The position numbers were made by a program, and so were the translations under genes. From NCBI GenBank assembly GCA_938023735.1, contig CALJDK010000041.1:53-64052 (forward strand): a stretch of DNA of 64,000 bases, written 5' to 3'. This document shows positions 8 through 38,025 of the stretch, one piece after another; the first letter of the stretch is position 1, and each line of letters starts with the position of its first letter. The DNA comes from an uncultured Acidimicrobiales bacterium (GTDB taxonomy: Bacteria > Actinomycetota > Acidimicrobiia > Acidimicrobiales > SHLQ01). Below the pieces are notes generated by a model. It was not told where the DNA came from, did not search any database, and worked only from the letters and a program-made list of their open reading frames with translations.

Positions 8-1222
8 CTACTCGATGCGCAGACCCGAGATAGCACGGCTGATTACCAGCTGCTGGATCTGCTCGGTTCCTTCGAAGATGTCGTGAATCTTGGCATCACG
101 GTGCCAGCGCTCTACCGGGTACTCGCGGGTGTAGCCGTAGCCTCCGAGGATTTGGATAGCTCGCTCGGTGACCCAGGTGGCGGTACGACCGGCCTTCATC
201 TTGGCCATGGAGCCTTCGGCGTTCTGGAACTTGCCGTTCTTGCCCAGCCACGCAGCACGCTGAATGAGCAGGCGACTGGCGTCGATCTCGGTTGCCATGT
301 CGGCGAGCATGAATGCAATCGACTGGTTCATGATGATCGGACGACCAAAGGCTTCGCGCTCTTTGGCGTACTGGAGCGAGTACTCGTAGGCGGCGCGAGC
401 AACACCGAGTGCCTGAGCACCAACCGCGGGGCGGGTGGCCTCGAAGGTCTGCATGGCAGCCTGGGCGTTACCCTTCTTGCCTTCACGGACTCGAGCAAGA
501 CGCTCGTCGAGCTTCTCTTTGCCGCCAAGCAGGCAGCTTCCGGGAACGCGAACTTCGTCGAGAACAACCTCGGCGGTGTGACTGGCCCGAATACCGTGCT
601 TCTTGTACTTCTGCCCCTGGCTGAGGCCGGGGGTATTGGGCGGAACCACGAAACTGGCGTGACCCTTCGACTTGAGCTCGGGGTCAACGACGCCGACCAC
701 CACGTGAATGTCGGCCATACCACCGTTGGTGATCCAGGCCTTGGTGCCGTTGAGCACCCACTCGTCCTTGGCCTCGTCGTACTTGGCCGACAGGCGGTAC
801 CCGCCAACGTCGGATCCGGCGTCGGGTTCGCTGGCGGCGAAGGCGCCGGTCTGGATCTTGTCGGCGGTGCCGTAGCACTGCGGCACCCATTCCATGACCT
901 GCTCGGGCGTGCCTGAAGCGGCAATACCTGCGGCCGCGAGGCCTGAGCCCATGATGGCCATGCCGATGCCGGCGTCGGCCCAGAACAGCTCTTCGATGGC
1001 GGTGACCATGGAAAGACCCGTTGGGTCATTCATCATCATCTCGGCCATGAACTCCCAGCTGTACAGCCCGATCTTGGCGGCCTCTTCAACGATGGGCCAC
1101 GGGAACTCTTCTTTTTCGTCCCACTCTTCGGCGGCGGGACGGATGACGTCGACACCAAACTCGTGGATCCACTTCTGGAGTTGAAGTTGGTCTTCGTTCA
1201 GTTCGAGGGAGAACTCTGCCAT
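8..1222 (-). CDS. acyl-CoA dehydrogenase
   Basis: Full-length 404-aa ORF with typical ACAD layout. The C-terminal GGYGYTREYPVERWHRDAKI...EGT.QIQ motif is characteristic of the family. The overlapping + strand ORFs are high-GC shadows. Confidence 0.9.
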   Translation of the reverse strand: MAEFSLELNEDQLQLQKWIHEFGVDVIRPAAEEWDEKEEFPWPIVEEAAKIGLYSWEFMAEMMMNDPTGLSMVTAIEELFWADAGIGMAIMGSGLAAAGIAASGTPEQVMEWVPQCYGTADKIQTGAFAASEPDAGSDVGGYRLSAKYDEAKDEWVLNGTKAWITNGGMADIHVVVGVVDPELKSKGHASFVVPPNTPGLSQGQKYKKHGIRASHTAEVVLDEVRVPGSCLLGGKEKLDERLARVREGKKGNAQAAMQTFEATRPAVGAQALGVARAAYEYSLQYAKEREAFGRPIIMNQSIAFMLADMATEIDASRLLIQRAAWLGKNGKFQNAEGSMAKMKAGRTATWVTERAIQILGGYGYTREYPVERWHRDAKIHDIFEGTEQIQQLVISRAISGLRIE

Positions 1223-1333
1223 TTGTGTGAGTCTTTCGTTATCGCTGAATAGCGGCGTATCGGGAACAGCACGCCTGTGCTCATAATCGGCGCTTTTGCC
1301 GAGACTTCAATCGAAGTCGCCCGCAAATTGGGG

Positions 1334-1349
1334 GTTACTAGTGAGTAAC
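1334..1349. promoter_or_regulatory. perfect 6-bp inverted repeat GTTACT-AGTG-AGTAAC in the divergent intergenic region
   Basis: Read directly from the sequence. It lies about 110 bp upstream of the acyl-CoA dehydrogenase start. Calling it an operator is speculative. Confidence 0.2.
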
Positions 1350-1541
1350 TTACAGAATGCGGACAGAAATGCAACCATTTCTTCTCGGCAGTACTTCCCT
1401 CTATCTTCTCCCCCACCCACTCCCCACGCACTCGCCTTTCCCTCGCCCCTATCTCGACGGAATGGTCAAACCGGCCTTCCGAGCGCCGATTGGACCCCCA
1501 TGGCACTTCCGCCAACACTCCGGTCACCAGGCCGCGCCACC

Positions 1542-2765
1542 ATGGCGGTCCTGGTACTTCTCGTCATCACCGCAGCCATCAGCACCCTCGCCAACAAGTT
1601 TCTGCTTGGCGATCTGTCGCAGGGCTGGGCGCTGGCAGTAACCGGCCTGCTCGTGGTGACCATCGGCGGATCGCTCTTGACGAGGTTCGTGGCCTGGCCC
1701 CTGGCCTCGCGCCAAGCCGAGCTATTCGACACCACACAAACCTCGCAAAACGCGCTCAGCCACGACGAACATTTCCGCCAGCAGTTCGCTCAACTCGACC
1801 GAGAACTCGCGGCTGCACCCTCGGAACCCGCCGCCATCAAGGTCCTCGGCGATTACCTCAGCGAGTTGGGCATCAGCGACCTCATCGAACTCCACGTGAT
1901 CAACGCCTTCGACGACACGCTCGACTTTGTGGCCGCCAACCGCAGCATGGTCTTGCCATCGAGTCCCGCATCGCCGTGGGATTGCAAAGCCGCGGTTGCT
2001 AGCGCCACGGTCACCACCGAAACCACCAGTAGTCCCGATGCCTGCGCCCATTTACGAACGCGGGTTTCGGCCCCCGTGTCTGCTGTGTCGGTGCCACTTA
2101 CGGCGCAGGGTGGCATCCTTGGCGTGCTTCACGCCACGGGGCCCGAAGGCGATCCGCCCACCCCTACAGCGGTCATCATTCTGGAATCCTTCGCCGCTCG
2201 TGCTGCGCTGAACATTGCGCTCCAGCGCTCGTCGACAGAAGCATGGCGACCACACATCGACACCACCACCTCGCTTCCCACCGACGACGACGTGGCCATC
2301 GTGGTGGCGCGGGCACTGGCCGACAATCGACCTCAAGCGGTCGGTTGGCTCAGCATCGACAACCTCACCCGTCTTGACGCTGAGCACGGTTCCGAGGTGA
2401 CGAGGGGGTACCAACGCTGGCTCGCCAGCCTGCTCCTCAGCCTTCTCCCACCCGGCTCGTCCATCGGCACCCGACCCGACGGCGATTTCCTGCTCGCTAT
2501 CGACCTGCCCGGCGGCAACACCGCCGAAAACTCTTCAGCCGCAGGTTTTGCCGACGCCGTCGAACGAATCGAGCTGGTGCGGGCCGCTGTGGCGCAACGG
2601 AGAGGTCGCGACCTGCCCGACGTCACCGTAAGCGCAGGGGTGATCGGATCCACCGGCGCCCCGTCGACCATCGCACTCCTGGCCCGAGCACGGGCCGGCC
2701 TCGATCACGCTCGGAAGAGCGGCGGCAACATCGTCGTACAACAAAGCGGTCAAGCCAGCTCCTAG
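1542..2765 (+). CDS. membrane protein with GAF-like middle region and degenerate GGDEF-type C-terminal domain
   Basis: Hydrophobic N-terminus starts at the internal Met (MAVLVLLVITAAI...). The C-terminus (WLSIDNLTRLDAEHGSEVTRGYQ...RPDGDFLLAI...SAGV...ARARAGLDHARKSGGN) follows the diguanylate cyclase fold, but PDGDF sits where GGDEF is expected. The longest ORF starts at 1296, so the start is uncertain. Confidence 0.6.
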   Translation: MAVLVLLVITAAISTLANKFLLGDLSQGWALAVTGLLVVTIGGSLLTRFVAWPLASRQAELFDTTQTSQNALSHDEHFRQQFAQLDRELAAAPSEPAAIKVLGDYLSELGISDLIELHVINAFDDTLDFVAANRSMVLPSSPASPWDCKAAVASATVTTETTSSPDACAHLRTRVSAPVSAVSVPLTAQGGILGVLHATGPEGDPPTPTAVIILESFAARAALNIALQRSSTEAWRPHIDTTTSLPTDDDVAIVVARALADNRPQAVGWLSIDNLTRLDAEHGSEVTRGYQRWLASLLLSLLPPGSSIGTRPDGDFLLAIDLPGGNTAENSSAAGFADAVERIELVRAAVAQRRGRDLPDVTVSAGVIGSTGAPSTIALLARARAGLDHARKSGGNIVVQQSGQASS

Positions 2766-2923
2766 AGCACCGACAACCACCACCCGCTGGTTCGCCGCCA
2801 CGAGACGGTTGTGCTTTAGCCTGCAAGGCAATGAGTTCTCCCGCGTCACCCCCGTCACCGTCCCCCGCTTCGTCTCCGTCATCCTCGTCATCCTCGGTTT
2901 CCGCACCAACCGAGCTGGCCAAG

Positions 2924-5900
2924 ATGTACTCGCCGGCCGACACTGAGACCGATGTGCGGACTCGCTGGGAAACCGCCAACGCCTTTGCCGTCGAGCCAAC
3001 CACCAACCCCGACGACCCCACCTACAGCATCGTCATCCCGCCACCCAACGTCACGGCGGCGTTGCACCTCGGGCATGCGCTCAACAACACCTTGCAGGAT
3101 GTTCTGACCCGATACCACCGCATGCGGGGCGATCGCACGCTGTGGATGCCAGGCACCGACCACGCTGGCATCGCCACCCAAACCGTGGTGGAGAAGCGAC
3201 TCCTCTCCCAAGGCATCAAACGACTCGACATGGGCCGCGACGCCTTCATCGAAAAGACCCAGGAGTGGAAGGACGAATACGAGGAGGTCATCCTCGAACA
3301 GCTGAAGGCGATGGGAGCAAGCTGCGATTTCGACCGCACCCGGTTCACGATGGACGACGTTTGCGCCACCGCCGTGCGCCACGCCTTCTTCCTTTTGTTC
3401 CAAGACGGCCTGATTTACCGGGGTAAGCGCCTGGTCAACTGGGATCCTGTGACCCGCACCGCGCTGTCAGACGACGAGGTCGAGATGGAAGAGGTCGAGG
3501 GCCATATGTGGTACCTCAACTATCCGCTGGCCGATGGTTCAGGTCACGTGACCGTGGCAACAACCCGGCCTGAAACCATGCTTGGCGATACCGCCGTTGC
3601 CGTGAACCCCAACGACCCGCTGGCCGAAGCCGTGCGAGGCAAAGATGTGCTGCTGCCCATCGTTGGCCGCACCATCCCCATCGTCGAGGACGACTATGTC
3701 GTGATGGCCGACCCCGAGGGCGACACCAAAGCAAAGATCGCTAGTGGTTTCCTGAAGGTCACGCCGGCACATGACCCCAACGACTGGGAGATCGGGCTGC
3801 GTCACGACCTGCCCGTTATCAACGTGATGGGTCCCGACGGTGGCATCACCGACAAGTACGGCTGGGATGACCCCAGCCCGGAATCGCAGCAGTTCATCGG
3901 CATGAGCCGAGAGGACGCCCGGGCAGCGATCGTGGAATGGTTCGACACCAACGGCCTACTCGACAAGGTCATCGACTACAGCCACTCGGTCGGCCACAGC
4001 TACCGAAGTCATGTGCCGATCGAGCCGTGGTTATCCGACCAGTGGTACGTGGCGGTCACCGACGACAAACTCCGTGGCGCCGCAATCCGCTCGCAGGTGA
4101 CCGATCAGGCCGGAGAGGTTCCCGAAGGCGTCACCGGTCCTGCCGACGCTGAAGGCGACGGTGGTCTCCGGTTCTACCCGCCCCGGTACGCCCGCACGTT
4201 TCACTCGTGGCACGAGAACATTCGCGACTGGTGCATCAGCCGCCAGCTCTGGTGGGGCCATCAGATTCCGGTCTGGAACCGCACCGTGGCGATGGCCGAC
4301 GCGACCCCCGAGGTCGTCGCTGCGCTCACCAACGCCAATGTCGACTCGGCCCAGCCAGTCGAAAGTGCGTGGGTTGCCGCGGGAGCCGCCCACCTGGCCC
4401 GGCTGGTTACCACCGACGAAATCGAAGAGAGCGTGTGCGTGCCGCCCGGCAGCTCGCTACAGCGCCTCGAACGCTCCGACACGGCGATGGACGAACAGCA
4501 GCTCATCGCTGCGCTCGAATCCGATGGCTATGTGCGCGACCCCGATGTTCTTGACACCTGGTTCTCGTCGGGCCTCTGGCCCATGTCGACCATGGGTTGG
4601 CCGTGGCCCGAGGACTTCCCCGAAACCGTTGGCCTTCTCAACTCCTTCAACCCCACATCGCTGCTCACCACCGCCCGCGAAATCATCACGCTGTGGGTGA
4701 GCCGTATGGTGATGTTCAACCGCTACTTCATGGATGGCCAGCTGCCCTTTGACGACGTGTTCATTCACGCCATGATCCAGGACGGGCACGGTCAGAAGAT
4801 GTCGAAGAGCCTGGGCAACGGTGTGGACCCGCGCGACATCATCCACACGCACGGCGCCGATGCAATGCGGTTCAGCCTGACCCAGATGACGACCGACACG
4901 CAGGACCTGCGAATGCCGGTCGACACGATCTGCCCGCACACCGAAGAGGTGTTTACGCCCGAGTTCATCACGACGCCTGCGGGCCACACCGTCGCAGCTC
5001 CGATTCAGCAGTCGCCCGGCGGCGACGGCAAGACCATGGTGAGTATGTACGGCGTGGCGACCGGCCAGGTCGAACCATCGGACGATCAGCCGCTGGCCCG
5101 CAACACCTCACCCAAGTTCGATGTGGGTCGGAACTTCGCCAACAAGGTCTGGAACGCAACCCGGTTTGCGTTGGGCAGCATTCAGCTTGATGAAACCACC
5201 ACACCGTCGGACCCCGTTGCCATGAACACAACCGCCTTTGTCGACCAGTGGATTGTCTCTCGGCTTGCCGAGACCACGGCCACGATTGACAAGGCGCTCG
5301 CCAACTACCAGTTCAACGTGTACGCCGACACGCTCTACCACTTCGTATGGGATGACTTCTGCGATAACTACCTCGAAGCCATCAAGCCAACCGTGCGCGA
5401 CACCCCAAGCCAGCAAGTGGTGCTGGGTGCGGTGCTCGACGCCGTGCTGCGACTCATGCACCCGGTCTGTCCCTTTGTTACCGAGGCGCTCTGGGCCAAT
5501 GTGGTCGCGGCGCGAGGTGGCGAGGTTGCCGGACTGGATCTTGGCGATCGCTCCTCGCTCGAGCTGCTGGTTAACGCTCCGTGGCCAGTGCTCGACGAAT
5601 CGCTCATCGACGCCAGTGCGGCCAAGACATTCGACCGTGCTCACGAACTTGCTACCGAGATTCGCCGGTTGCGTTCGCAGCGTGCGGTAAAACCAAAACA
5701 ACAAATCACGGTGCATGTCGATGCCAAGGTGCAGGAGCTCATCGACGCTGCGGGCGGAATGATCGAGACCCTTGCGGTGGTCGGCGACGTCTACAGTTCG
5801 GATGACGAACTCCCACAGGTATCGAGCGCCATTGCGTTTGAAGGCTCGCAAGTGATCGTGTCGGACCTGGTTGAAGAGGTTGATCTCGATGCCGAGGCCG

Positions 5901-31773: not shown

Positions 31774-33360
31774 TTACTGCAGTCTTGGATCGGTGCAGTT
31801 GTCGGTACCGCCGGTGCCAGTGGAGCCACCATCGACAAAGTCGGGCAGGAATCCACTGCCGCTGTCGTCGGTGGTGAGAAAGCGTTCGATGGCATCAACG
31901 ATGGCCACGGCTTCGGTGTCGCGCACATCATCGCGGGCAAATAGCAGGGCTTCGGCCCGGTTGCTGAGATAGCCGGCCTCGGTGATTACCGATGGAATCG
32001 TTGGGGTGTAGCGGTGGATCCCGTAGAGGTCTTCACCGTTCTCTTTCAAGCGTGAGCTCACCCCGTTGCGGACGGTTCCGACCCAGGTGATGTCGTACTG
32101 ATCGAGTGCCGCCGTGAGCTCTTCGAAGAAGATTCCTCCGGCGCGTTGGGACTCGACGCTTCCGGTTTGCACGAAGATCTCGGTGCCCGGCGTACCTTGA
32201 GGCCGCACCGCTCCGCCGTTGTGGTGAATCGACACGAAGAGATCTGGCTTGAGGGCGTTGGCGATTTCGGCTCGGGTCCGTAACGGGATTCGATGATCGG
32301 TGGTTCGAGTGAGCACCGAACTGATGCCTCGAGCCTCGAGGATGGCTTTCACCCGAGTTGCGATCGAAAGGTTCAGCGTCTTCTCAAAGAGGTTGTTGTG
32401 GCCCACAGCACCCGATTCGGCGCCACCATGTCCGGGGTCGATGACTACCTGCGTCCCGGCGACGAAGGTGCCCTTGGTGATGCGAGCGGTGCGGACGCAT
32501 GGGGTCCACACGGTCCAGCCGTCGTTATGGGTTTCAAGGACCGGGGTAACGATGCCGGTCGGCGTGATGACCACGCCGGGCCCACCACGAGAGACATCGC
32601 CCCGAACCACTGCTGTTCCGCAGCCCAGCTTGCGGTTGAGACCTTCACCGTTGTTGACCGCGTGGGCACAGACTTCATGAGTTCCGGGTCGTAGTGTGAC
32701 CGTGGTGGAGAAGCCATGGCGCTTCCCCATGTCGTAGCGGCGGCCGATGTCGGCGCGTTTACGGCCGGCCCGAGTGGTCTTGGTGTACTCGCCGTCAACA
32801 TAGATGTCGACATTGATGGGTCGCTTGGTATCGGGATCGATGGCGAAGCCAACCAGAGTGGCCTTGGCTCCATCGCTGGTGATCTTGTCGACCCCCCCAA
32901 ACGGGCGGGCGGCCTGCACCTTTGTCTTGGCGTTCACCTTTACCTGGGCGCAATCGATGTTTCGGGTAACACCGGTGGGTCCGGCGTTGATGCCATCGAC
33001 ACACACCTCGTGGGTGCCAGCCGATGCCTTCACCCGAACGACATACCCAAAGTTGTTGCCCTTTTGATGAATAGCGTTGGCGTCGGCCCGGTTGCCGTTT
33101 GCGAGCTTGGTACGCACGCGCTTGCCGTCGACGGTGACCCGCACCTTGATGGGGCGCGTGGAGTCGCCGTCGACCGCCCACCCGCGAACCGTGATGGAGT
33201 TCGGCCCACCGGCCGCGCTGTCGAGAACGCCCCAGGGCGAAAAGACCTCGGCTTGGGCAGACACGCTGCTTGGCGTGAGGAGCGCGGCCAAAAGAGCGCT
33301 GACGATAACCACAGCTATCGCTGCGACTGCGGAAGTTCTGAACGGAGGAACGATCTTCAC
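31774..33360 (-). CDS. secreted N-acetylmuramoyl-L-alanine amidase (Amidase_3) with two N-terminal paralogous domains
   Basis: Signal peptide and two repeats of about 110 aa (GWA.D.D...PI.V...VDG...GTHEVC). The C-terminus VIDPGHGGAESGA...LFVSIHHNGG...TEAGYLSN is typical of Amidase_3. GTG start. Confidence 0.85.
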   Translation of the reverse strand: MKIVPPFRTSAVAAIAVVIVSALLAALLTPSSVSAQAEVFSPWGVLDSAAGGPNSITVRGWAVDGDSTRPIKVRVTVDGKRVRTKLANGNRADANAIHQKGNNFGYVVRVKASAGTHEVCVDGINAGPTGVTRNIDCAQVKVNAKTKVQAARPFGGVDKITSDGAKATLVGFAIDPDTKRPINVDIYVDGEYTKTTRAGRKRADIGRRYDMGKRHGFSTTVTLRPGTHEVCAHAVNNGEGLNRKLGCGTAVVRGDVSRGGPGVVITPTGIVTPVLETHNDGWTVWTPCVRTARITKGTFVAGTQVVIDPGHGGAESGAVGHNNLFEKTLNLSIATRVKAILEARGISSVLTRTTDHRIPLRTRAEIANALKPDLFVSIHHNGGAVRPQGTPGTEIFVQTGSVESQRAGGIFFEELTAALDQYDITWVGTVRNGVSSRLKENGEDLYGIHRYTPTIPSVITEAGYLSNRAEALLFARDDVRDTEAVAIVDAIERFLTTDDSGSGFLPDFVDGGSTGTGGTDNCTDPRLQ

Positions 33361-33754: not shown

Positions 33755-35593
33755 GTGACTGACGCAACACTTCGGTTCCCCCACACACATCCTCCGATTG
33801 CCCACTGGGGAACCTTCCGAGAAGGGACCACCCATACCGTGGCCGATAAGAATCCAGCCGATGAGGCCGCCGATAAGGCGAAGAACAGCGCTACAGACGG
33901 CGCAAAGAACGCGGCGAATGCCGCTCGTGAGAAAGCTGGCGGCGCGACCGGCAAGGCAGCCGGCGCAGCCGGGGCCGTTGGTGGCGCTGCAGCCGGACTT
34001 GGTGGCAAAGCCACCCGAACCATGAAGGGCGTTTCTGGGATGTCCGCGACGGGCAATTCCGGTCGAGGCGACGGCCGCGGCCGATGGCTTCGTCGAAACA
34101 AGGCTGGAAAGCCTTGGAAGCGCCCAACCGCAATGCTCGGGCTTCTTCCGCTTCTTGGCCTCATTGCCTTCACGCTTCCGTGGGCCGTCGATCACATCGA
34201 GGACGATCTCGAGGACGCCACCATCGTGCAGATGCGCGATGAGTACGGCATCAACCTCACCAAGGATCAGATCGACTTCGACGGACGCGACGGTGAGATC
34301 ACCAACTTCACATTGCCTGAAGGTGTCACCAACGAGGAGATCGAAGAATTCCTCGAGGACCGAATCGAACGCGATGGCGGAGCAATTCGAGAGGGCGACA
34401 CCTCGCAGATGACCGTTCTCGGCACCGAAGCGGCTCCCGCACCCACGGGCAGCCACGACGTGCGAGTCACCGCAACGGGCGACCAGATCACCCTCACGGG
34501 TGATGTGCTCAACCAGGCCGAGTACGACGAACTGCAAGCTGCGGCCGTCGACGCGGTCGGCGAAGCCAACGTCACCAACAACCTCAACATCCTCGATGTC
34601 GAGGCCAGCAAATCGGGCTCGGCAGCCCGGGTAGCCGGACTCGCTGGGGCGGTAGCGCTTATGACTGGCGACAACATCGTGAGCGGCGACGCCCACCTCA
34701 CCGATGATGCGCTCGACGTCAACGCAATAGCCGTCAACGAAGATGCCAAAGCGGCACTCGAGGGCGCGGTTGGCGGAGTCGAGGGAGTCGACATCAGCGA
34801 CAACGTAACGGTTGCGGCTCCTGACTCTGGTCCACTCGATGTTCAGGTCAGCACCGACGGAGCCAGCATCACGTTGGACGGCACCGTGCTCAACGAGACC
34901 CAACACGACGCGCTGGTAAGCGCCGCCGAGGCCGAGGTTGGCGAAGCCAACGTCATCAACAACCTCACCATCTCCAACCTTGCCGAGATGGCTCCCAACG
35001 CCGACGGAAAGGTTGCCGATATGGCTGCCCTGTTCGACGGATTCGACGGCCTGGTGGAAGGATCCGGCTCAGTTACCGACGGCGCACTTACCTTCACCGG
35101 AGTCGCCAGCGATGAAGCCAGCAAAGCAGCCATCGACGGCTTGGTAGGTACCGCCAACGACACCAACAACGTCGATGTCACCGTCGCCGAGGTGACGGTC
35201 GAGGACGAGGTCGGGCTGCTACAAGCCGAGCTCGATGCCCTCCAGGCCGAGATTCTCGAGAACGTTGTCTTCGATGTCAACAGCGATGTCATTACGCCAA
35301 CCGCTGCGGGCACCCTCGACAAAGTCGTGGCTGCCATGACCAGGTACCAGCGACCAGCGGTACTTGTCGGCGGACACACCGACTCCGATGGCGACGATGC
35401 CTTCAACCTCGATCTCTCCGATCGCCGGGCAAAGTCGGTTAGCCAGTACATCGCCGATCAAGGAATCGACATCAATCGTCTGAGGGGCCAGGGCTTCGGT
35501 GAAACCGAACCGGTTGCCGCCAACGACACGCCAGAAAACAAGCAACAAAACCGACGGGTCGAATTCACCGCACTCGCCGAATTCACCAACTAA
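33755..35593 (+). CDS. ArfA-like envelope protein: TM anchor, BON-like repeats, C-terminal OmpA/MotB peptidoglycan-binding domain
   Basis: The C-terminus FDVNSDVITP....LDKVV......PAVLVGGHTDSDGDDAFNLDLSDRRAKSV..Y....GID..RL...GFGE..PVA.N......NRRVEF is a classic OmpA_C. Several segments of the form TGDVLN..E.D.L..AA....GEANV.NNL are BON-like. The start is uncertain because there are several in-frame Met/Val codons. Confidence 0.75.
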   Translation: MTDATLRFPHTHPPIAHWGTFREGTTHTVADKNPADEAADKAKNSATDGAKNAANAAREKAGGATGKAAGAAGAVGGAAAGLGGKATRTMKGVSGMSATGNSGRGDGRGRWLRRNKAGKPWKRPTAMLGLLPLLGLIAFTLPWAVDHIEDDLEDATIVQMRDEYGINLTKDQIDFDGRDGEITNFTLPEGVTNEEIEEFLEDRIERDGGAIREGDTSQMTVLGTEAAPAPTGSHDVRVTATGDQITLTGDVLNQAEYDELQAAAVDAVGEANVTNNLNILDVEASKSGSAARVAGLAGAVALMTGDNIVSGDAHLTDDALDVNAIAVNEDAKAALEGAVGGVEGVDISDNVTVAAPDSGPLDVQVSTDGASITLDGTVLNETQHDALVSAAEAEVGEANVINNLTISNLAEMAPNADGKVADMAALFDGFDGLVEGSGSVTDGALTFTGVASDEASKAAIDGLVGTANDTNNVDVTVAEVTVEDEVGLLQAELDALQAEILENVVFDVNSDVITPTAAGTLDKVVAAMTRYQRPAVLVGGHTDSDGDDAFNLDLSDRRAKSVSQYIADQGIDINRLRGQGFGETEPVAANDTPENKQQNRRVEFTALAEFTN

Positions 35594-35629
35594 TCGACCC
35601 GATACTTCGCACGAAGGGAAACACACATA

Positions 35630-37939
35630 ATGCTGTACACACTTGGGGAAATTCTTATCCCCCTAATCCTTGCAGCCCTAGGCGGCCTCGGCCTCGGCTG
35701 GTTGCTCTGGCGCTGGCGCCACAGCCATGTCAACGGGTCCGACTGGGACTCGGTCCAGGCCCGGGCAGGCGACTACGACCGGGTCAACAGCGACTACCAG
35801 ACGCTTCACAAGCAATCCGCTGGTCTCAACGACGAGAAGCGGGCGCTCGAGGGCCGAGTTTCCTCACTTACCGGGGACCTCAACGGCGCCAACGCACGAA
35901 TCGGCGAGCTCGAAGGTGAAGTCAAGACCGAGCGCACGAAGGCATCGGCGCTTTCGGGCGACCTCGATGGCCTTCGGGCAACGGTCAGCACCAACGAAGG
36001 ACAGCTTCTGTCGATGCGAGGTGACCTCGACGGTTCCCAGGCCCGTATCGGCGAGCTTGAAGGCGAACTGCAAGGTGCAAACGCCCGGGCAAACTCGCTG
36101 CAGAGCGATGTCGAAGGCGCCAATGCCCGAGCAACGTCGCTGCAAGGCGACCTTGAGGGAGCAAATGCCCGAGCGGCAGCGCTTGAGGGTGACCTCAACG
36201 GCGCAAACGCCCGGGTATCGGCACTCGAGGGCGACCTTGACGGCGCTAACACCCGCCTTGCCGCACTGCAGGGCGACGTCGACGGAGCAAACGCCCGAGC
36301 CAAAGCCCTCGAAGGTGAACTCGAAGGCGCCAACGCCAGAGTCTCCGCACTCGAAGGCGAGTTGGGTACGGCCAACGGACGAATCAGCGCACTCGAAGGT
36401 GATGTTGTTTCAATGACCGCACGCACCACCGAGCTCGAAGGTGAGCTTGGCGGTGCCAACAACCAGCTCATGGGATTCGCATCGCTTCAGGGCGACTTCG
36501 ATGGTGCCAACGCCAGGGCATCGGCACTCGAAGGCGACCTCGCCGGAGCCAACGCGCGGATCAGCGCCCTCGAAGGCGACCTCGCCGGGGCCAATGCACG
36601 GGCGTCGGCACTCGAGGGTGACCTTGCTGGAGCTAACGGGCGTGTCGCTGACCTCGAAGGCGAACTTGCTGGCGCCAACGCCAAGGCATCTTCACTCGAA
36701 GGCGACCTCGCCGGAATGAGTTCGCTACAAGGCGACCTCGACGGAGCCAACGCCAAAGCGTCGGCACTTGAGGGTGACCTGGCTGGAGCCAACGGCCGAA
36801 TCGGTGAACTTGAAGGCCAACTGGCTGGAATGGCATCGCTGCAAGGCGACCTCGACGGAGCCAACGCCAAAGCGTCGGCACTCGAAAGCGAACTAGCCGG
36901 CGCCAACGGCCGAGTGGCCGACCTCGAAGGCGAACTCGCTGGCGCCAATGGTCGAGTCGGCGAACTTGAAGGCCAACTTGGCGAACTCGGCCAACTCCGA
37001 GGAGACCTCGACGGAGCCAACGCCAAAGCGTCGGCACTCGAGGGTGACCTGGCTGGAGCCAACAAACGGGTCGGCGAACTCGAAGGCCAGCTCGCTGAAC
37101 TCGCCAAGCTCCGAAGCGAGCTCGACGGAGCCAACAAACGAGTTGGAGCCCTCGAAGGCGACCTCAATGGTGCGAAGGCCAAAACGACAGCGCTTCAAGG
37201 CGACTTCACCAACGCCAACAGTCGGGCAACTGCGCTTCAACGAGATCTCGATGCGTGTGCAAAACGCACCACCTCGCTTTCGGGCGACATCGAAAAGCGC
37301 AACGCCAAGATTGCCGAACTCGAAGCCAAGCTCGCCGCAGCAAAGGCAAAACCTGCCCCGAAGCCTGCGGCAAAGCCAAAGAAGAGCACGCTTGAAGTCA
37401 TTACCAAGGACAAGGCACCATCAAAGTCCGAACGTGATGACCTTCAGCTCATCAACGGCATCGGCCCACAGATGGAAGAAATGCTTCACGGTGAAGGCAT
37501 CTACTTCTTCCGTCAACTCGCAGCACTCGACAAAGCCGGCGTGAACGAGCTCAACGAGCTCCTTCCCGGATTCCCTGGCCGCATCGAACGCGACGAATGG
37601 GTACCGCAAGCCCGAGGCTACCGAGACGGCAAAACACCAGCTGCCAAGGCAAAGCCTCCTGCGAAGCCGAAGAAGACGAGCACCCTCACCAAGATCAGCA
37701 AAGATAAGGCACCATCAAAGTCCGAACGCGACGACCTCAAAGAGATCAGCGGCGTCGGACCACAGATGGAGAAGCTGCTCAACGGTGAAGGCATCTACTT
37801 CTTCCGCCAGGTTGCCGCACTCGACAAAGCCGGCGTCAAGGAGCTCAACGATCTGCTCCCCGACTTCCCCGGCCGCATCGAACGCGACAACTGGGTACCG
37901 CAAGCCAAGCAGCTCCAGAAAGCAAAGTACGGAAGCTAG
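35630..37939 (+). CDS. TM-anchored repeat coiled-coil protein (about 35 x 14-aa units) with two C-terminal helix-hairpin-helix modules
   Basis: The N-terminal helix ILIPLILAALGGLGLGWLLW is followed by RWRH. Residues 82-565 are tandem units with consensus GDL.GANAR.SALE. A Lys/Pro-rich linker follows, then two modules of about 72 aa (KDKAPSKSERDDL..I.G.GPQME..L.GEGIYFFRQ.AALDKAGV.ELN.LLP.FPGRIERD.WVPQA). A terminator lies downstream. Confidence 0.85.
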   Translation: MLYTLGEILIPLILAALGGLGLGWLLWRWRHSHVNGSDWDSVQARAGDYDRVNSDYQTLHKQSAGLNDEKRALEGRVSSLTGDLNGANARIGELEGEVKTERTKASALSGDLDGLRATVSTNEGQLLSMRGDLDGSQARIGELEGELQGANARANSLQSDVEGANARATSLQGDLEGANARAAALEGDLNGANARVSALEGDLDGANTRLAALQGDVDGANARAKALEGELEGANARVSALEGELGTANGRISALEGDVVSMTARTTELEGELGGANNQLMGFASLQGDFDGANARASALEGDLAGANARISALEGDLAGANARASALEGDLAGANGRVADLEGELAGANAKASSLEGDLAGMSSLQGDLDGANAKASALEGDLAGANGRIGELEGQLAGMASLQGDLDGANAKASALESELAGANGRVADLEGELAGANGRVGELEGQLGELGQLRGDLDGANAKASALEGDLAGANKRVGELEGQLAELAKLRSELDGANKRVGALEGDLNGAKAKTTALQGDFTNANSRATALQRDLDACAKRTTSLSGDIEKRNAKIAELEAKLAAAKAKPAPKPAAKPKKSTLEVITKDKAPSKSERDDLQLINGIGPQMEEMLHGEGIYFFRQLAALDKAGVNELNELLPGFPGRIERDEWVPQARGYRDGKTPAAKAKPPAKPKKTSTLTKISKDKAPSKSERDDLKEISGVGPQMEKLLNGEGIYFFRQVAALDKAGVKELNDLLPDFPGRIERDNWVPQAKQLQKAKYGS
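35873..37324 (+). repeat. 42-bp (14-codon) tandem repeat array, about 35 units including four 30-bp short units
   Basis: Units counted on the translation. Three exact 35-bp copies of gacctcgacggagccaacgccaaagcgtcggcact start at 36734, 36848 and 37004. All six frames are largely stop-free here, which generates several spurious ORFs. Confidence 0.9.
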
Positions 37940-37986
37940 CTACTACCGCTAGCCAGCAAAGCTAGTCAGTACAGACAATCAAGATG

Positions 37987-38025
37987 GTGCGGTCCTCCTG
38001 TTCGGGAGGGCCGCACTTTCGTTTT
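37987..38025 (+). terminator. intrinsic terminator after the repeat-protein gene
   Basis: 12-bp stem GTGCGGTCCTCC / GGAGGGCCGCAC with one G-U pair and a 6-nt loop, followed by TTTCGTTTT. Confidence 0.7.

Follow-up and report, generated by a model that had tools for sequence, protein, structure and literature searches.

The gene pair and the stalked membrane protein

The stretch of DNA analysed here, called the window, comprises 64,000 nucleotides (nt) of contig CALJDK010000041.1 (positions 53 to 64,052 of the forward strand; GenBank assembly GCA_938023735.1) from an uncultured bacterium of the Acidimicrobiales. A reading-frame check of its sequence places an open reading frame (ORF) at 35630..37939 on the plus strand, where an ATG start yields a protein of 769 amino acids (aa); it consists of an N-terminal membrane helix, a long coiled-coil rod and two C-terminal helix-hairpin-helix (HhH) modules, each preceded by a basic linker. 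Directly upstream lies a gene with BON and OmpA-like domains, and the 769-aa gene would occupy the ArfC position in a two-gene operon of the arfA/arfC type, in an actinobacterium related to the Acidimicrobiales. The function proposed below for the pair, a tether or spacer between cell wall and nucleic acid, is tentative. Directly observed are the anatomy of the protein, the conserved gene pair, charges of opposite polarity around its two membrane helices, relatives that form a graded series, the swapping of heads between them, and the membership of the head modules in an HhH family. The three-part anatomy had been recognised correctly in the initial annotation, which was made from the sequence. 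The features of the pair, all on the plus strand, are as follows.

33755..35593, plus strand: ArfA-like partner gene (Pfam OmpA 72.6 bits, BON 33.1 bits)
35613..35619, plus strand: Shine-Dalgarno-like GAAGGGA, 10 nt 5' of the ATG, read from the sequence
35630..37939, plus strand: whole ORF, ArfC-position membrane protein with a predicted coiled-coil stalk and two HhH heads
35630..35728, plus strand: N-terminal anchor, residues 1-33, a single membrane helix by hydropathy
35873..37324, plus strand: rod, residues 82-565, about 36 tandem units in canonical heptads, net charge about -38
37328..37435, plus strand: linker 1, residues 567-602, rich in lysine, proline and alanine (AKAKPAPKPAAKPKK...), net charge +8
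37436..37621, plus strand: HhH module 1, residues 603-664, DDLQLINGIGPQ...GRIERDEWVPQA, net charge -6, profile score 96.4 bits
37622..37729, plus strand: linker 2, residues 665-700, rich in lysine, proline and alanine, net charge +9
37730..37915, plus strand: HhH module 2, residues 701-762, DDLKEISGVGPQ...GRIERDNWVPQA, net charge -3, profile score 103 bits
37986..38027, plus strand: intrinsic terminator with a 14-bp stem, nine G-C pairs, a 4-nt loop and a T-rich tail

The stem of the terminator occupies positions 37986-38017 and is followed by a run of T, which bears out the earlier claim that the gene has a strong terminator of its own. The position directly behind the BON-OmpA gene was likewise described accurately: the intergenic gap measures 36 nt, and since no terminator-like site was seen within it, the two genes are probably co-transcribed. 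This neighbour is not incidental but a conserved partner. The GTG at which its listed ORF begins (33755) probably lies too far upstream; translation more likely starts at a second GTG, at 33839, because GAAGGGA, the same motif that precedes the stalk gene, lies 11 nt before this codon and because the resulting N-terminus matches that of the orthologue in locus L002.

Membrane anchor, orientation and ArfC-like relatives

The sole hydrophobic segment of the 769-aa protein comprises residues 1-27, with a Kyte-Doolittle maximum of 2.28. No lysine or arginine precedes this helix and RWRH follows it; homologues carry WRWRR after the helix, and the polarity is the same throughout the family. The anchor conforms to the motif L.EI.IPL....G...GWLLWRWR (in short, EIxIPL...GxxxGWLLWRWR), which holds a GxxxG, and its residues E7, G19, L20, G23, W27, R28, W29 and R30 are invariant in ten out of ten homologues. 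A topology with the N-terminus outside and the C-terminus inside, so that rod and heads would be cytoplasmic, is supported by this charge bias and by the occurrence of the same head module on proteins of the cytoplasm, namely the respiratory subunit NuoE, ribosomal proteins L21, S2 and L4, and a phasin. On these same grounds, the initial annotation's single N-terminal membrane helix followed by RWRH, with the rest of the protein in the cytoplasm, finds support.

The partner shows the opposite polarity. An alignment with five orthologues was made for this protein, in which a tail rich in glycine, alanine and lysine is followed by a membrane helix (residues 124-146), BON repeats, a short coiled coil and an OmpA-like domain of the peptidoglycan-binding kind. 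Seven lysine or arginine residues stand before the helix and five acidic residues after it; these charges predict an N-in/C-out topology with a cytoplasmic tail. Against the NCBIfam model ArfA_OmpATb_N the partner scores 51.5 bits, under the cut-off of 81.

The two genes occur together well beyond the window. The anchor gene directly follows an ArfA-like gene on the same strand in 15 loci, namely the window, seven homologous loci (L001, L002, L008-L011 and L016) and seven anchor-positive metagenome loci. The latter come from a scan of metagenome contigs with the anchor, which yielded eight loci, seven of them motif-positive; in each of these seven, the immediate upstream neighbour is an OmpA-like gene. 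In L008, L009, L010 and L011, where the homologues are 33-38% identical to the 769-aa protein, an OmpA-type gene is again directly upstream, and at this distance a one-base overlap of the two genes or a spacing of 2-10 nt is frequent. Locus L013, which has a content of guanine plus cytosine (GC) of 30-35% and lies outside the anchor family, keeps the same gene order with a degenerate anchor motif.

Several genes beside the pair in these loci may be recorded in their own right. Within one branch, a gene for a PD40 (TolB-like repeat) protein follows the stalk gene in L010 (8395-9477) and L011 (8138-9505), and the pair is preceded by another gene with BON/DUF748/OmpA domains in L008 (3330-4199), L010 (3220-4065) and L011 (2217-3110); together, PD40 and the extra OmpA gene loosely resemble Tol-Pal neighbourhoods. 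In L013, genes for ComEC (DUF4131 and Competence domains) and for a ComEA-like HHH_3 protein lie divergently beside the pair (874-3707); this adjacency may be a coincidence.

If the helix were inserted the other way, rod and heads would lie outside the membrane in the manner of TolA domain II or of the DNA receptor ComEA. Such an arrangement might be read from the OmpA-like genes and the amidase gene near the pair, from the PD40 genes in L010 and L011, and from the ComEC and HHH_3 genes in L013, yet it is extremely improbable. A TolA/ComEA-like external topology was rejected on its charge polarity: proteins of this N-in/C-out type have positive residues before the helix, where the 769-aa protein has none, and the family-wide RWRH or WRWRR stands after it. 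Furthermore, the head module sits on ribosomal proteins and on NuoE, soluble multi-module proteins of the head family have no signal peptides, and a rod of 72 nm would be too long for the wall zone of a cell that is probably single-membrane.

A link to ArfC is provided by protein P0019 (L016 6001-7923, on a contig of 4.37 Mb), which shares 22 of the 33 anchor residues and has a BON-OmpA partner gene upstream. Its coiled coil matches that of the 769-aa protein in BLASTP with E = 2e-38, including a break of the form LxGFA(S/G)L. P0019 resembles the 769-aa protein in its anchor, its type of coiled-coil repeat, its upstream partner and the position of its heads; it differs in the heads themselves, which are three tandem sunset domains. 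With these it scores 194 bits on NCBIfam model ArfC_sunset (NF051433, 'channel accessory protein ArfC, sunset domain variant', 160 positions, cut-off 100 bits), a score driven by the sunset domains, and NCBIfam also uses this domain to set apart variants of the ribosomal proteins L17, L4, L20 and S2. Since P0019 bears unrelated heads of about 40 residues at the same place, the head is exchangeable. Shorter relatives complete the picture: L019 and L024 encode anchor-only proteins of 78-85 aa, L022 an anchor with a short helical tail, L021 and L020 an anchor with linker and sunset domain (177-202 aa), and L017 a long coiled-coil form. The anchor-only genes and those of L021 and L020 each stand directly after an OmpA-like gene, and the proteins of L021 (81 bits) and L020 (73 bits) align collinearly with positions 10-156 of the 160 in ArfC_sunset, both under the cut-off of 100. 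The short anchor genes are located as follows.

L021, 3189-3737: anchor, linker and sunset
L020, 1671-2357: anchor, linker and sunset
L019, 891-1151: anchor only
L024, 4357-4692: anchor only

The relatives form a graded series, from anchor-only proteins through anchor plus sunset to coiled coils that carry either three sunset or HhH heads. The 769-aa protein lies directly downstream of an arfA-like gene in the same orientation and has a single N-terminal membrane helix; with 769 aa, however, it is not a small protein such as ArfC, whose model has 160 positions, and short relatives measure 78-202 aa. By position, predicted topology and kinship with P0019 it is ArfC-like rather than a demonstrated ArfC member; it is filed in this way because no ArfC model is among the NCBIfam hits listed for it.

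In Mycobacterium tuberculosis, the ompATb/arf operon (arfA rv0899, arfB rv0900, arfC rv0901) accelerates the release of ammonia at acid pH, whereas the roles of rv0900 and rv0901 are elusive (PMC12183614). The likeness to the pair in the window consists in a gene for a membrane helix with BON and peptidoglycan-binding OmpA-like domains, and behind it in the operon a gene for a single-pass membrane protein; the differences are the absence of arfB, the coiled coil of about 500 residues with its HhH heads, and the acidimicrobial host. The pair could act as arfABC does in M. tuberculosis, serving pH or envelope homeostasis and the release of ammonia, and stalk and heads would do no more than regulate or localise this function of the membrane part. 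Gene order and partner architecture fit arfA-arfC, and the anchor-only relatives point to the membrane part as the conserved core. Nevertheless, this explanation is quite improbable: it borrows from genes whose own role is elusive, no ArfB-like small gene is found in the 36-nt gap, and the conservation of a stalk of some 500 residues and two heads is left unexplained.

Coiled-coil rod and genomic surroundings

The rod is strongly periodic, with an identity at lag 14 of 0.451 compared to 0.109 +/- 0.014 (maximum 0.164) in 1000 shuffled sequences. It was segmented into 30 units of fourteen residues, five units of 10 residues and one 7-mer. The initial annotation had counted about 35 units including four 10-residue ones; these four were found again (at residues 358, 396, 448 and 486), and a fifth (NQLMGFASLQ, residues 278-287) and the 7-mer are to be added, for a total near 36. 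Register tracking agrees with the canonical heptads claimed previously, with a = L33/V12/A12/I7, d = L35/A25, g = D/R and e = N/E, and with R(g)-E(e') pairs at i+5; this pattern of a/d heptads and charge pairs is as expected of a parallel dimer. The hydrophobic a/d and complementary e/g positions expected of a two-stranded parallel coiled coil continue through all 484 residues with five breaks, each a deletion of 4 residues, at positions 283, 363, 401, 453 and 491. Deletions of this kind are termed stammers. At 0.1485 nm per residue, 484 residues would extend over 71.9 nm; the initial annotation had estimated roughly 60-70 nm and had already taken the four 10-residue units for discontinuities of the heptads.

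Two properties qualify the picture of a regular coiled coil. Glycine makes up 15% of the rod, at odds with the low glycine content of coiled coils; it occurs solely at c and f, on the outside of the helix, and the orthologue in L002, 51% identical overall, often has alanine or another residue where the rod has glycine (for example, ADLAAANAK vs. GDLAGANAR), which makes these positions compatible with a helix. At the DNA level, Tandem Repeats Finder detects periods of 42, 84, 114 and 156 nt with 68-81% identity between copies; a recent expansion of the repeats was rejected on this divergence, and the array is therefore considered old. The rod also varies in length: three orthologues measure 769, 837 and 937 aa and differ by whole rod repeats, and among relatives in general the rod ranges from none to about 700 residues.

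Matches of the rod to known coiled-coil families remain below threshold (Rod_CreS 91 vs. a cut-off of 100; Filament 38.9 vs. 40; SMC_prok_B 108.8 vs. 567, with no ATPase heads), and SMC, Rad50 and crescentin were rejected on these scores. The rod might nonetheless be a structural filament beneath the membrane, comparable to FilP, Scy or crescentin, which would stiffen the envelope or give it shape; the partner would connect it to the wall, and the heads would have a secondary role. The 91 bits with the crescentin rod model and 77 bits with a tropomyosin model lend themselves to this view, as do the variation of the rod by whole repeats in the orthologues, the wall amidase that recurs nearby, and the BON domain at the tip of proteins P0020 and P0041; as BON domains can bind phospholipid (PMC7806268), the rods of these two proteins could lie along the membrane. 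On the other side, the Rod_CreS score stays under its cut-off and coiled coils commonly give hits of this sort; no part of the protein is conserved better than the heads, with about 90% identity between orthologues whose overall identity is 51%; and, given its 15% glycine and its stammers, the rod looks more like a flexible stalk than a stiff filament. A filament function is slightly more doubtful than a function of the arfABC type.

The wall amidase just mentioned is encoded upstream of the pair on the opposite strand, and an Amidase_3 gene is found within a few kb of the pair in five loci (the window, L001, L002, L008 and L011):

31774..33360 (window), minus strand: Amidase_3, N-acetylmuramoyl-L-alanine amidase, Pfam 124 bits; divergent, part of the context and not a proven component
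L001, 4052-5656: Amidase_3
L002, 2815-4371: Amidase_3
L008, 10258-11037: Amidase_3
L011, 9519-10844: Amidase_3

This recurrence hints at a link of the pair to wall remodelling or septation. The genomes nearest to the window are metagenome-assembled genomes of uncultured Acidimicrobiales, in which the homologues are 63% (L001) and 51% (L002) identical; both keep the order of amidase (minus strand), BON-OmpA gene, 769-aa gene, nitroreductase, DusB and Maf. GC content is uniform at 60-64%, and a horizontally transferred island around the gene was rejected on this evenness across the window. Rfam (at the gathering threshold) and tRNA scans of the entire 64-kb window (1-64000) returned no match and no tRNA gene.

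HhH heads, the proposed tether and its meaning

Each head module comprises 62 residues, with the hairpin motifs GIGP and GVGP, and AKP motifs recur in both linkers; the linker of protein P0037 is still richer in lysine. Pfam HHH_5 matches the 769-aa protein in module 2 with 33.2 bits (cut-off 27). An AlphaFold2 model of this single module shows five or six short helices, where an (HhH)2-type fold would have five, with a predicted local distance difference test score (pLDDT) of 88.4 and a predicted template-modelling score (pTM) of 0.77; for a two-module model the pLDDT is 71. Foldseek places the nearest folds, at query-normalised template-modelling scores (TM-scores) of 0.50-0.63, in the helicase-like domain of Pol theta, the N-terminal domain of RadA/Rad51 and the AR2 repeat of NusA; the C-terminal half of UvrC reaches 0.44 against the single module. 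Taken together, the searches by sequence and by fold yield weak neighbours, all of them HhH domains, from RadA/Rad51, UvrC, Dpo4/Pol iota, Pol beta, Topo V, S13 and NusA. The assignment of the modules to the HhH superfamily is supported by sequence and compatible with the AlphaFold2 model; the two HhH modules with GIGP/GVGP signatures seen at the outset have thus held up, with HHH_5 above its cut-off and weak HhH neighbours in agreement. The kinetoplastid mitoribosomal protein mL85 of Trypanosoma brucei (6yxx_BS / 7aoi_BS) is also among the nearest folds and shows a query-normalised TM-score of 0.52 with 25% identity over 72 columns, which is not significant; the likeness is curious, as the module also sits on alphaproteobacterial ribosomal proteins.

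At E <= 1e-3, a profile built from 25 modules retrieves 20,604 representative clusters, of which 12,134 reach E <= 1e-10. Up to 26 modules can stand in tandem in one protein; P0073, P0074 and P0075 are giants of 2280-3115 aa with 20-26 HhH modules, the first of them with an N-terminal hydrophobic anchor. Such an anchor is present in 108 of the 147 new entries, mostly multi-module proteins, among the 150 proteins with the best scores, and P0087, P0110 and P0037, from lineages of very different composition, likewise combine anchor, coiled coil and modules. An anchor, a spacer and tandem modules are the dominant layout of multi-module members, and the architecture is widespread rather than unique. 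The initial annotation's statement that the architecture fits no characterised cytoskeletal or segregation family is right in that none of these families claims the protein, but COG3743 heads and an arfA/arfC-like operon do place it. Variations on the layout include an extra HhH module in the middle of the rod (coiled coil - HhH - coiled coil - HhH - HhH) in one branch of homologues (P0001, P0002, P0004-P0007 and P0010-P0013), and an anchor and coiled coil followed by a BON domain and one HhH in P0020 and P0041 (with locus L012, 3-995). P0020 and P0041 have no second membrane helix, so that their BON domain would be cytoplasmic; the gene upstream of P0020 itself encodes a BON/BON_like protein.

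Outside these anchored proteins, NCBIfam knows the module as a C-terminal extension domain of alphaproteobacterial NuoE, L21, S2 and the phasin PhaH; the NuoE model PRK12373 scores 143 bits on the 769-aa protein. The name given to homologues by JGI, 'predicted flap endonuclease-1-like 5' DNA nuclease', is that of COG3743. A word-indexed protein search with the 80-aa module gave zero candidates, and the corresponding profile search yielded for the most part short fragments annotated as NuoE, L21 or 'flap endonuclease-1-like nuclease'. In the PDB, the domain is present in two sequences only, Urf1/protein-3h from Rhodovulum sulfidophilum (9WQV) and protein-O from Dinoroseobacter shibae (8YY9); the E-values of these two with the module profile are 3.8e-28 and 3.5e-27. 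Literature searches for COG3743, for the C-terminal extension of NuoE and for tethers composed of membrane helix, coiled coil and HhH found no functional study.

These data can be combined in a tentative model, possible and preferred here, in which the pair is a tether or spacer between wall and nucleic acid. The BON repeats and the OmpA-like domain of the partner would grip peptidoglycan outside the cell, and the 769-aa product would insert in the opposite sense, with its tiny N-terminus outside and the remainder in the cytoplasm. Helix contacts through the conserved GxxxG would pair the product with its partner, and two chains would join in a parallel coiled coil that projects about 72 nm into the cytoplasm. 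The tip of each chain would present two heads, each composed of a basic linker rich in lysine, proline and alanine and a COG3743 HhH module; heads and linkers would bind nucleic acid without sequence specificity, most likely the nucleoid, alternatively ribosomal or other RNA. In this way, the pair would tie a nucleic-acid-rich cytoplasmic body to a wall-anchored point of the membrane, or hold it there at a fixed distance. The binding of nucleic acid is suggested by the HhH superfamily, with HHH_5 above its cut-off and the weak HhH neighbours listed above, by the histone-H1-like AKP linkers, the tandem arrays, where up to 26 modules would suit the binding of a polymer, and an equivalence with PhaC2 tails: the PhaC2 proteins of Halomonadaceae hold either COG3743 or histone-H1-like tails in the same C-terminal position, and DNA binding by COG3743 is a speculation in the same study (PMC8686332).

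As a caveat, several observations weigh against this model. The modules are net acidic in the 769-aa protein (-6 and -3), as in the family at large (median -2 in 672 modules), and in this respect resemble the acidic repeats with which NusA binds protein. Across the family, the median net charge of the 30 residues before a module is -1; basic linkers are a feature of certain lineages and not a family rule. Foldseek with the single-module model gave no significant match (best E-value 0.41). The domain is disordered in both cryo-electron microscopy (cryo-EM) structures (8YY9, 9WQV), whose authors call its function obscure or unknown. The predicted topology is derived from a bias of two charges and from the locations of the domain elsewhere. 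With regard to ArfC kinship, no ArfC model is among the best 25 of 41 NCBIfam hits of the 769-aa protein, and its N-terminal 81 aa have no NCBIfam hit at E <= 10. Finally, the existence of anchor-only and short-tailed relatives marks stalk and heads as additions to a core function of the membrane pair. The case for the nucleoid binding proposed in the initial annotation is weaker than was implied, in view of the acidic modules, next to which only the linkers are basic, and of the Foldseek result.

The acidity of the modules is also a starting point for an explanation that is unlikely but deserves weight: the heads could be protein-docking modules, like the acidic HhH repeats of NusA or SAM domains, and the stalk a scaffold that captures proteins which bear or recognise the same head, above all ribosomes, and may thereby provide a site for translation close to a wall-anchored membrane complex. 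NusA AR2 is the best sequence neighbour with a solved structure (E = 0.03), and Foldseek lists NusA AR2 and SAM tandems as well; with the two-module model, its hits are uniformly weak and in mixed registers. The HhH head occurs on L21, S2 and L4, and the sunset head that can replace it on L17, L4, L20 and S2; ribosomal proteins S2 and L4 thus carry both head types, while HhH alone is seen on L21 and sunset alone on L17 and L20. Locus L014 contains an L4 gene with a C-terminal HhH (2-694, 31.6 bits) about 4 kb from P0026 (5001-7523), a protein with anchor, coiled coil and five HhH modules; docking can claim this proximity of the two genes within 5 kb. In turn, the similarities to NusA and SAM are all non-significant, and the basic AKP linkers of the 769-aa protein and of P0037 are left without explanation. 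The readings considered here are not fully mutually exclusive. That HhH and sunset heads are swapped on the same stalk, and that both occur on ribosomal proteins, suggests a shared, abundant cytoplasmic ligand. By analogy, an envelope bridge reminiscent of eukaryotic LINC (linker of nucleoskeleton and cytoskeleton) complexes could exist in many bacteria, where an OmpA-type wall anchor and a cytoplasmic stalk, paired helix to helix, would constitute a common attachment system; exchangeable HhH or sunset heads may fasten the nucleoid or ribosomes to points on the wall, at a distance set by the length of the stalk. This generalisation is rather unlikely to hold, a degree more so than docking.

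Among known systems, the arfA/arfC operon is nearest by kinship, the C-terminal domain of Urf1, NuoE, L21 and S2 nearest as a domain, and the plant protein MFP1 nearest as a functional analogue. Urf1/protein-O, NuoE, L21, S2 and PhaH share the domain family, often with a linker rich in alanine, lysine and proline before it; in these proteins a single copy sits on an enzyme, ribosomal or photosynthetic subunit, whereas the 769-aa protein has two on a membrane-anchored stalk. The DNA-binding, histone-H1-like tails (AAKP/PAKKA) of PhaF, PhaM and Cobetia PhaC2 resemble linkers 1 and 2 as basic segments of lysine, alanine and proline, but what they tether are polyhydroxyalkanoate granules, not the envelope. 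Scy/FilP, crescentin, DivIVA and SMC are likewise long cytoplasmic coiled coils, none of which pairs an N-terminal membrane helix with HhH heads; the 769-aa protein belongs to none of these families and would also lack the 51-residue repeat described within this group. Chloroplast MFP1 is a long, thylakoid-anchored coiled coil that has been proposed to anchor nucleoids to the membrane (PMC4154389) and has also been reported to position the initiation of starch granules (PMC10801857). Its likeness to the 769-aa protein is that of a membrane-anchored coiled coil, and kinship is neither expected nor assumed; unlike the 769-aa protein, MFP1 is eukaryotic and has neither HhH heads nor a wall-binding partner.

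The analysis provides context for a large orphan domain of 20,604 clusters; recent cryo-EM papers on photosynthetic complexes report this domain on Urf1/protein-O and NuoE and describe its function as obscure. It also ties COG3743 to the arfA/arfC operon of mycobacteria, where the role of the accessory genes is elusive. A further outcome is the testable idea that arfA/arfC-like pairs would couple the cell wall to the cell interior. We know of no characterised nucleoid-positioning system in small marine actinobacteria; if the ligand of the heads is DNA or the ribosome, the pair would represent a physical link from wall to interior in these organisms.

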